DNA of 64,000 nucleotides from a virus. The translations under genes were made by a program, and so were the position numbers. Positions 18,678 to 19,342 of the stretch are shown here, piece after piece. The DNA is taken from positions 1 through 64,000 of the IMG/VR virus record IMGVR_UViG_3300020411_003820; one strand, given 5' to 3'. A model generated the notes under the pieces. That model had not been told where the DNA came from. It saw nothing but the letters and a program-made list of their open reading frames with translations, and ran no database searches. How positions within the stretch are numbered: position 1 is the first letter of the stretch; the number at the start of each line of letters is the position of its first letter.

Positions 18678-19318
18678 TTTGTATTCCTATATACTTGGTT
18701 AAATAGTTGTTGAATTTCTTGGTTTCCCGCATGTGCTATATCTATAGCAACTTTTAACTGATCTAAGTCTTTCCGTTTCTCATCGGCGGGCAATTGACTA
18801 TAATCAACAAACAAGCTTGGGTTGCTATCTTTTTGCCATGAATTGTGTTTCATCCATATTTTATGGAATTTGCTAGCCAACGCTTCAATATCGCCGGCAG
18901 AAGTTATCGGAAGTTCTCCAACTGCTTTGGCATAATCTGCCGCTGGTGCACCATTTAATTTATTAGCAAGCGATGGCTCAATTTTATCAGCCTCTTGGTT
19001 GATATTTTGGTGTACAACGCCATCAATAACTTCGATACCCTCATAACCTTTTAAGTTTTCTAATGGTGGGTTATTAGGAATCGGCTTAAATCTTGGCTTA
19101 TCTCCATTCTCTTTTCTGTAACCTTCAAGCCATTTAGCGTGCATTTTATCGGTTAAATCTTTCGCTAATTGAGCGTCAAACATGTCAGCATACGGCTCAT
19201 TTCGAAGATCTTCAGGACTCATATACTCTTCACCAGTATCAATGTCAGCAACAGCACGACCGGGTTCGTATTCTGCTTCAGTTATGTACTTTCGCCAATT
19301 TTCAAATAGCTTCTTCAT
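18674..19318 (-). CDS. FENWRK-leader protein with RyR-like domain
   Basis: MKKLFENWRKYITE; LASKFHKIWM...NPSLFVDYSQLPADEKRKD resembles the RyR repeat consensus. Confidence 0.65.
   Translation of the reverse strand: MKKLFENWRKYITEAEYEPGRAVADIDTGEEYMSPEDLRNEPYADMFDAQLAKDLTDKMHAKWLEGYRKENGDKPRFKPIPNNPPLENLKGYEGIEVIDGVVHQNINQEADKIEPSLANKLNGAPAADYAKAVGELPITSAGDIEALASKFHKIWMKHNSWQKDSNPSLFVDYSQLPADEKRKDLDQLKVAIDIAHAGNQEIQQLFNQVYRNTK
18677..18712 (-). repeat. Repeat R2 copy B (promoter + RBS module, inside a CDS 3' end)
   Basis: CAACAACTATTTAACCAAGTATATAGGAATACAAAA. Confidence 0.9.
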
Positions 19319-19342
19319 GTTGCTAATCCATTCATACTTAGT
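19288..19342 (-). repeat. Repeat R1 copy 2 (FtsZ-tail duplicate plus leader)
   Basis: 48/55 identical to 19997-20051. Confidence 0.9.

Follow-up and report, generated by a model that had tools for sequence, protein, structure and literature searches.

A displaced copy of the 3'-end of a tubulin-like gene as a probable recombination footprint in the cargo island of an uncultured marine T4-like phage

The DNA stretch analyzed here, called the window throughout, comprises the 64,000 nucleotides (nt) from position 1 to 64,000 of the IMG/VR virus record IMGVR_UViG_3300020411_003820, a metagenome-derived record of 84 kb that is 43% complete. It contains a tubulin/FtsZ-like gene of 379 amino acids (aa) at 20024-21163 on the minus strand (Pfam Tubulin PF00091, E=4.6e-9), which is the conserved left anchor of an island of small cargo genes. 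All genes discussed around it are also encoded on the minus strand, and the order of transcription is tubulin-like gene, gene A (229 aa), gene B (214 aa), gene C (78 aa), gene D (125 aa), and gene E (243 aa). The subject of this study is a short sequence, R1, that occurs twice at this locus. The resident copy consists of the last eight codons and the stop codon of the tubulin-like gene (20050-20024), reads CTAAGTATGAACGGATTGGCAACATGA, and encodes LSMNGLAT*; its stop codon, TGA, and the ATG of gene A overlap. The orphan copy of 27 nt (19315-19341, minus strand) reads CTAAGTATGAATGGATTAGCAACATGA and is located 709 nt downstream of the resident copy, between genes A and B. The two copies differ at two positions, AAC/AAT and TTG/TTA, and both differences are synonymous in the LSMNGLAT frame, as had been described in the original prediction, which was made from the sequence of the window. 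The 27-nt tail has only these two matches in the window when up to three mismatches are allowed, and the number expected from 100 shuffles is 0.00.

The full repeat unit extends past R1 into the codons of a leader that is shared by A and B (MKLIFENWRK and MKKLFENWRK, respectively). It thus comprises R1 and the first ten codons of gene B (19288-19342, minus strand), which pair with 19997-20051 over 55 nt with 87% identity. Gene A (19338-20027, minus strand) starts with MKLIFENWRKF and encodes a protein with a hydrophobic, membrane-type middle. Gene B (18674-19318, minus strand), which adjoins the tubulin-like gene in relatives, starts with MKKLFENWRKY, and both leaders are of a kind that will be called N-type. 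The orphan copy encloses the TAA of gene A (19338-19340) in a different frame, and the LSMNGLAT frame is closed by a stop codon two codons further upstream, so that the orphan lies outside the protein encoded by gene A. Within the orphan, a mini open reading frame (ORF) of six codons, MNGLAT* (19315-19335, minus strand), ends with a TGA that overlaps the ATG of gene B (19316-19318). ATGA overlaps are found at three places, between the tubulin-like gene and A (20024-20027), between the mini-ORF and B (19315-19318), and between B and C (18674-18677).

The origin of the orphan was analyzed with 80 IMG/VR loci that had been retrieved with the tubulin-like protein and are 87-99% identical to it at the aa level and 74-92% at the nt level. 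Among the 75 non-redundant relatives for which tail alleles were counted, the orphan 27-mer is the commonest 3'-end of the tubulin-like gene (14 exact matches), and its first 24 nt are shared by 25 of the 75 tails, with TGA, TAG, or TAA as stop codons. The resident tail allele of the window (AAC..TTG) is present in none of the 75. The proposal that the orphan stems from another allele of the tubulin-like gene is thus supported. It had also been proposed that relatives should exist in which an orphan-type tail is directly followed by a gene starting like MKKLFENWRKY, and such loci were found, in which the commonest tail is followed, with an ATGA overlap, by a B-type gene, for example L017, L074 (MKKLFENWRKH..EAEY), L068, L043 (..FENWRKYTNEA..YEPG), and L082. 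The first 48 residues of B are 39-73% identical to the genes after the tubulin tail in L017, L043, L068, and L074, and with most relatives B shares just these 48 residues. A search with B revealed a full-length homolog with 60% aa identity in L082, where the order is tubulin-B-E. In L068, the junction between tubulin tail and next gene is collinear with the orphan and the first about 110 nt of B (90% identity over 134 nt), and this alignment starts exactly 27 nt before the stop codon of the tubulin-like gene of L068. The tail allele, the tubulin-B adjacency, and the collinearity together indicate, on the basis of sequence comparison, that the orphan is the old tubulin-B junction and that gene A lies inside a duplicated junction. 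They also support the idea that cargo was added by recombination at the tail of the tubulin-like gene.

A second duplication, R2, is found further downstream in the island. Its resident copy of 37 nt (18676-18712, minus strand) is the native 3'-end of gene B, QQLFNQVYRNTK*, and the same C-terminus is present in the B homologs of L081-L083. The orphan copy of this B tail (18022-18058, minus strand) is located between D and E, directly in front of E, and is identical to the resident copy at 34 of 37 nt. In L081 and L082 the B homolog ends with ..EIQQLFNQVY.., and its tail directly abuts the ATG of E. The R2 orphan has the GGAGTACAA variant of L082 and not the AGGAATACAA of the window's own B. 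Because an orphan-type R2 abuts E at the end of B in L081 and L082, R2 is the native C-terminus of B and the intergenic copy is derived. The R2 duplication means that the tubulin tail is not alone in showing the effect. In a survey of repeats across the window, no families other than R1, R2, and the leader repeat were found to mark gene junctions. The other strong repeat family consists of two tandem units of 84 nt with 74% identity (2250-2417), which lie inside an ORF of 478 aa (1328-2764) and are probably a repeated domain of a structural protein.

The genes between and behind the two copies of R2 can also be traced in relatives. Gene C (18441-18677, minus strand) has a leader of a second kind, the Q-type leader MKITKQQLKQIIKEE, and in L032 and L078 the tubulin-like gene is immediately followed by a gene that is 93-95% identical to C at the aa level. 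Gene D (18062-18439, minus strand) has an N-type leader and ends with YGLTT*, as had been noted at the outset. The final 17 nt of D (18062-18078) form a degenerate R1 that is in frame with the gene and equal to the orphan at 15 positions, and GLTT* also occurs as a tubulin-tail allele in L020 and L074. The ATGA of D is followed by a mini-ORF of six codons, MKPTTI* (18045-18065, minus strand), which runs into the R2 orphan and may be what is left of the start of an N-type gene that was deleted. Gene E (17289-18020, minus strand) starts with MARRKNTRRIDPRYF and directly follows the tubulin-like gene in eight cargo-free relatives (L003, L006, L022, L027, L047, L050, L069, and L080), in which the tubulin stop codon is 9-13 nt away from the ATG of E. 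Pfam yielded no family above the cut-off for genes A-E, and PHROGs none for the tubulin-like protein or genes A-E. A weak match of B to the RyR domain (PF02026, E=0.036, 14.7 bits versus a cut-off of 27.4) is below the threshold and is merely a lead. Neither the DNA of the window from 17000 to 22000 nor the tubulin-like protein had a match among 50,697 phage records in a comparison with cultured phages.

Copies of R1 are not restricted to the window. A further 53 non-redundant orphan copies of the 19-nt R1 core were found in the relatives, of which 22 are perfect and 21, 7, and 3 contain one, two, and three mismatches, respectively. All but two of the cores (51/53) lie at most 3.1 kb downstream of the tubulin stop codon, the remaining two are located upstream of the tubulin-like gene (L009 and L020), and in L020 a tail-like copy at about 5962 is directly upstream of the tubulin-like gene's own start. 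Every core directly precedes the start of the next gene, in 18 cases with an ATGA overlap and in 35 cases with a stop codon followed by a GGAG/AGGA site, and most cargo-bearing loci also have an R1 copy directly in front of E. On its left side the duplicate extends to a variable degree, from about 11 nt in L032 and L078 up to a match of 61 nt in L009 (3893-3953), which comprises about 55 nt of the 3'-end of the tubulin-like gene and lies 1.9 kb downstream of it. This variable left edge points to many independent joining events.

The frames in which R1 copies stand bear on the alternative that the copies encode a shared C-terminal peptide, ..ILSMNGLAT, which would mimic the tail of the tubulin-like protein and bind the same partner. 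Some cargo ORFs indeed read through the repeat in frame, and gene D ends with ..YGLTT*. Yet a census of 55 non-redundant copies identified only three (L008/L010, L017, and L057) that are in frame with a long upstream ORF, and in 30 of the 55 the cargo ends at a TAA, TAG, or TGA that is supplied or abutted by R1. In the window itself, the LSMNGLAT frame is interrupted by a stop codon ahead of the copy, and the end of gene A falls within the copy but in another frame. The frame census largely rules out the shared peptide, which we regard as highly unlikely.

The size of the cargo island was measured in 64 loci that also contain a conserved gene of 66 aa further downstream. It ranges from 341 to 5508 bp, with 1-11 ORFs, and a total of 260 ORFs was sorted by similarity into at least 87 groups, including 58 singletons. 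One of these groups, the largest with 84 members, probably owes part of its size to lysine/glutamate-rich stretches that remained after leader trimming, and the number of families is therefore a lower bound whose quality is uncertain. Identity of the flanking tubulin-like gene remains at 87-99% at the aa level while the island varies. The same cargo families occur at differing ranks and with differing neighbors across loci. An informative case is L107, which contains a homolog of gene A with 99% aa identity and an identical R1 copy 3' of it. Beyond the last shared base, L107 has a junction of the Shine-Dalgarno type and an unrelated gene with a Q-type leader. The shared A and R1, followed by different next genes, place the switch point at the 3'-edge of R1.

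Gene junctions are also preferred boundaries when all shared homology blocks in the islands are considered. The starts of such blocks lie within -45 to +5 nt of a start codon in 51% of the cases, versus 11% for random positions, which is a 4.5-fold enrichment, and the ends are enriched about twofold near start codons. A quarter to a third of the block boundaries are well inside genes, showing that exchange is not confined to the repeats. Only five syntenic pairs were informative for the conservation of the orphan versus its flanks, and they gave a mixed picture: R1 was conserved to 100% versus 89% for the flank, or to 93% versus 79%, or R1 was deleted between flanks of 88% identity.

In our view, the orphan 27-mer is very probably a recombination footprint, and at the same time a short handle for recombination, in the hyperplastic cargo island of an uncultured marine phage of the T4-like kind, about 195 kb in size. 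Direct observation covers the duplication and its allele, arrangements of the ancestral type, the pattern across the population, and the enrichment of breakpoints at junctions; the agent would be homologous or microhomology-mediated recombination, and the copies would need no function of their own. The simplest history would start from the ancestral order tubulin-B-E, as in L082, into which two insertions were made, A and then C-D. Gene A now lies between two copies of the tubulin tail, each followed by the shared leader, and C-D between two copies of the B tail. The last about 25 nt of an upstream gene also serve as the translation-start region of the next gene, and thus an insertion between such packed genes would survive only with the junction on both sides. 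After their formation, tail copies of 22-27 nt, together with about 30 nt of shared leader codons, could serve as short homologies. The general recombination of the phage, by RecA/UvsX-type and Mre11-Rad50 proteins, could cross over at these copies between co-infecting relatives or misaligned sister genomes, and unequal crossover would add, drop, or reorder cargo. Excision as a circle and re-insertion, as described for the PeSL cassettes discussed below, would also be possible. A duplicate would have to arise in the first place by illegitimate joining, by joining at microhomologies, or from an extra gene that was internally deleted, because the outer joints of C-D share few bases.

Several points weigh against this interpretation. 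The last eight tubulin codons show about half the synonymous variation of the rest of the 120 codons compared (third-position entropy of 0.455 versus 0.885 bits). The low variation of the tail and the near-perfect orphans could be explained as well by selection at the nucleotide level, on the start region or on coupling, as by homogenization. The outer joints of the C-D insertion share just about 4-6 nt, and therefore a crossover between pre-existing repeats cannot account for the origin of the C-D duplication. No recombination event or circular intermediate was directly observed, and contigs assembled with k=31 cannot show circles. Lastly, the adjacency of A and B in the window rests on assembly through the 55-nt repeat, and no listed contig bridges 19275-19312. 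No clean homologous-crossover origin could be reconstructed for the R2 duplication; if a leader-to-tail deletion in a second B-type gene is assumed, 4 nt are left unexplained.

The last of these points raises the question whether the duplicate is an artifact, either a chance match or a chimeric assembly that joined two strains at a shared tail plus leader. The record is derived from a metagenome and is 43% complete, and in the probable source run D-E, C, B, and A are each covered by separate k=31 contigs, with depths of 17.2, 11.9, 12.4, and 12.4, respectively. These contigs break at exactly the repeats, and the stretch 19275-19312 is left unbridged by the listed pieces. The summed depth at the repeats is 94-414 versus 12.4 over A and B, because many co-occurring strains share them. 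The equal depth of A and B fits one genome. An artifact is nevertheless very improbable. The chance expectation is 0.00, and one contig of the source run spans A and the copies on either side of it (19313-20052) without any difference. In L107, which stems from a different sample, A is followed by the same copy, and the 53 further copies lie inside contigs of many samples, each between unique sequences. The longest exact stretch common to the two copies in the window is about 21 nt, which should be below usual read lengths. In the runs X3, X4, and X7 the stretch is partly uncovered, and short-sided joints (19-30 nt), e.g., from 18023 to 19317, are probably tail-E junctions of other strains; neither was taken to indicate absence or a deletion in this genome. 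The general phenomenon is independent of the adjacency of A and B in the window.

The phage is T4-like, with a portal protein of the gp20 type, a large terminase of the T4 type, and an S77 prohead protease, and a gene of the RecA/UvsX family is present in all five complete relatives (E~1e-36). Two genes upstream of the island, a single ORF of 1035 aa (21815-24922, minus strand) encodes a Mre11-Rad50 fusion, in which an N-terminus of the calcineurin-like phosphoesterase (Mre11) type is joined to an ATPase of the SMC/Rad50 type; T4 has separate genes, gp47 and gp46, for the Mre11-type and Rad50-type parts. A further large ORF of the window, of 4112 aa, is located at 44995-57333 on the minus strand.

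Short conserved sites that recur regularly between small, unrelated genes, and crossover points at the repeat edge, would also be expected if the repeats were the sites of a dedicated, integron-like cassette system and were cut and joined by a phage recombinase or nuclease. Integron gene cassettes carry attC sites and are mobilized by the IntI integrase, and the island resembles them as an array of single promoterless genes that are split by short conserved sites. However, a tyrosine integrase (PF00589) is absent from the window's record and from the five complete relatives (187-196 kb), with positive controls in 14/14 genomes, and a serine recombinase is absent from the window's own record. 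The repeats form no inverted-repeat or attC-like hairpin structure, the left edge of the duplicate is variable and not fixed, and the site is derived from the coding end of a neighboring gene. Furthermore, the unrelated tail R2 behaves alike. Taken together, a dedicated site-specific system is extremely improbable.

The closest known parallel to recombination at gene tails is offered by the PeSL cassettes, through which modules are shuffled in the hyperplastic regions of T4-type phages (Arbiol et al., 2010, PMC2839356; Comeau et al., 2014, PMC4122927). They are intergenic regulatory units with a sigma-70-type promoter and a stem-loop terminator (PMC2839356), and mini-circles have been demonstrated for them (PMC2839356, PMC4122927). 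Like PeSLs, the short repeats described here connect the stop codon of a small, non-essential gene with the start of its successor, within a T4-like hyperplastic region. They bound insertions, deletions, and replacements between close relatives, and this also occurs without a dedicated recombinase. Unlike PeSLs, they contain neither a promoter nor a stem-loop, and each combines the first leader codons with a coding 3'-end, which belongs either to a conserved gene or to the cargo gene in front. In the 5.1 kb around the repeats 12 promoter-like sites were found versus 11.1 +/- 4.1 in shuffles, none of them reported at the orphan. A weak promoter match (9/12) spans the resident R1 copy and depends on the window-specific TTG allele. 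No terminator-like sites were reported at the repeats, nor was there an excess in the 5.1-kb region. The possibility that the repeats are true PeSLs with promoter and terminator was rejected, because these sites are not enriched. Folding of the RNA at the R1/R2 junctions was no better than that of shuffles (z = +1.44, +0.11, +0.30, and +0.24), and therefore a function as an RNA element was rejected as well. Judged by this comparison, tail-repeat shuffling extends the gene shuffling already known from T4-type phages.

A further alternative is that the orphan is under selection as an expression module. Ribosomes would restart on the MNGLAT* mini-ORF, two bases after the cargo stop codon, and be handed over at the ATGA, or the copy would be an unstructured standby or start region; recombination would then merely move a module that every gene needs. 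Several observations agree with this idea. The cargo stop codon is at most 5 nt upstream of the mini-ORF ATG or overlaps it in 30 of 55 copies, the orphan region is less structured than shuffles (z=+1.44), as is usual for start regions, synonymous variation in the tubulin tail is reduced, and 43 of the 53 orphan cores have at most one mismatch. The original prediction had likewise proposed that the mini-ORF maintains the ATGA coupling to gene B. The mini-ORF and its overlap are present, but a role in coupling, though conceivable, is unsupported, because its ATG is retained about equally often at 15/18 of the ATGA-type junctions and at 29/35 of those with their own GGAG/AGGA site. In L019 the ATG is replaced by ATA ahead of an ATGA-coupled gene. 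Moreover, the same pair of cargo gene and E is found with R1 (L004, L060) and with R1 cut to about 4 nt (L029, L051), which indicates that the copy is dispensable for the downstream gene. E has no R1 in front at all in L034, L043, L057, L067, and L068, and the R1 copies in L032 and L078 are truncated. The cargo gene of this pair ends with ..DSDPGQE[RS]F; the tail copy of about 4 nt before E is located at about 6800-6840 in L029 and at about 7430-7468 in L051, and the copy is full in L004 and L060. In L016, a full tail copy after the ..DSDPGQE[RS]F cargo precedes a Q-type gene and not E. On balance, selection of the copy as an expression module is unlikely.

The leader codons that follow R1 in the repeat unit are themselves widespread. 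The N-type leader is common to the starts of genes A, B, and D, and C has the Q-type leader MKITKQQLKQIIKEE, which also heads the genes at 21803 and 27394. Three leaders of each type are present in the 84-kb record, and 67 non-redundant N-type and 191 Q-type leaders were found in the fetched loci. N-type leaders are conserved at the codon level (Leu CTA 50/60, Arg CGA 38/45), and this pattern of codon usage fits identity by descent or homogenization. Q-type leaders vary freely at synonymous sites (GAA/GAG 92:90), which argues for selection on the peptide. In L047 (7148-7870), a body similar to that of A (63% identity) has the E-type leader MPIRKNIKRIDPRYF instead of MKLIFENWRKF. One protein body with two leaders implies that leaders are exchangeable modules. 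A literature search with the leader strings yielded no match.

Several features hint that the leaders are related to head assembly. A gene for a Peptidase_S77, i.e., a head protease of the gp21 type, is located at 7568-8176 (E=2.1e-28), and (L/I)-x-E motifs are present in both leader types (..LFE/IFE.. and ..IIKEE..), although a motif this short may occur by chance. Directly after the S77 gene, in the position of a scaffold or core protein, lies a gene for an acidic protein of 631 aa that is rich in Ala, Pro, and Glu (5704-7599, minus strand). This protein contains an N-type-like leader, ..YKQINENWQKFIKEQ.. (motif at 7520-7575), with 75% DNA identity to the cargo leaders. The internal proteins IPI, IPII, and IPIII of T4 are diverse and share only a capsid-targeting sequence (Rao and Black, 2010, PMC3012670). 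Similarly, the otherwise unrelated small proteins of the island share an N-terminal leader of about 10-15 residues, leader DNA can serve as homology for swapping, and a T4-type portal, large terminase, and S77 protease are encoded by the phage. Unlike the T4 internal proteins, there are hundreds of leader-bearing genes with two or three leader types, and some of the products are of the membrane type (gene A). To our knowledge, the 3' tail repeat has no counterpart in the loci of the T4 internal proteins. It is conceivable, though rather doubtful, that tail repeat and leaders form a purpose-built shuffling system that consists of a start region, a capsid-targeting leader cleaved by the S77 protease, and a payload that varies. 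In that case the island would be a rapidly re-assorting magazine of proteins that are packed into the head and injected. If true, the payloads might be, e.g., anti-defense factors, and the repeat sequence would be maintained to keep the magazine reloadable.

Footprints of recombination at gene tails are of practical and of general interest. The tail repeat and the leaders are sequence tags that can be used to harvest flexible phage genes, which are possibly involved in host interaction, from metagenomes. The case shows how a gene can be inserted between translationally overlapping neighbors in a dense phage genome, namely, by duplication of the junction, and how the duplicates may seed further exchange. 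This would explain why the island turns over completely between strains that differ in the protein of the flanking gene by no more than 1-7%, in an abundant group of uncultured ocean phages. It also broadens the PeSL idea, as any short sequence that is bound to a gene boundary, be it a coding tail or leader codons, may become a recombination handle, and a handle of the coding-tail kind would require no promoter, terminator, or recombinase.

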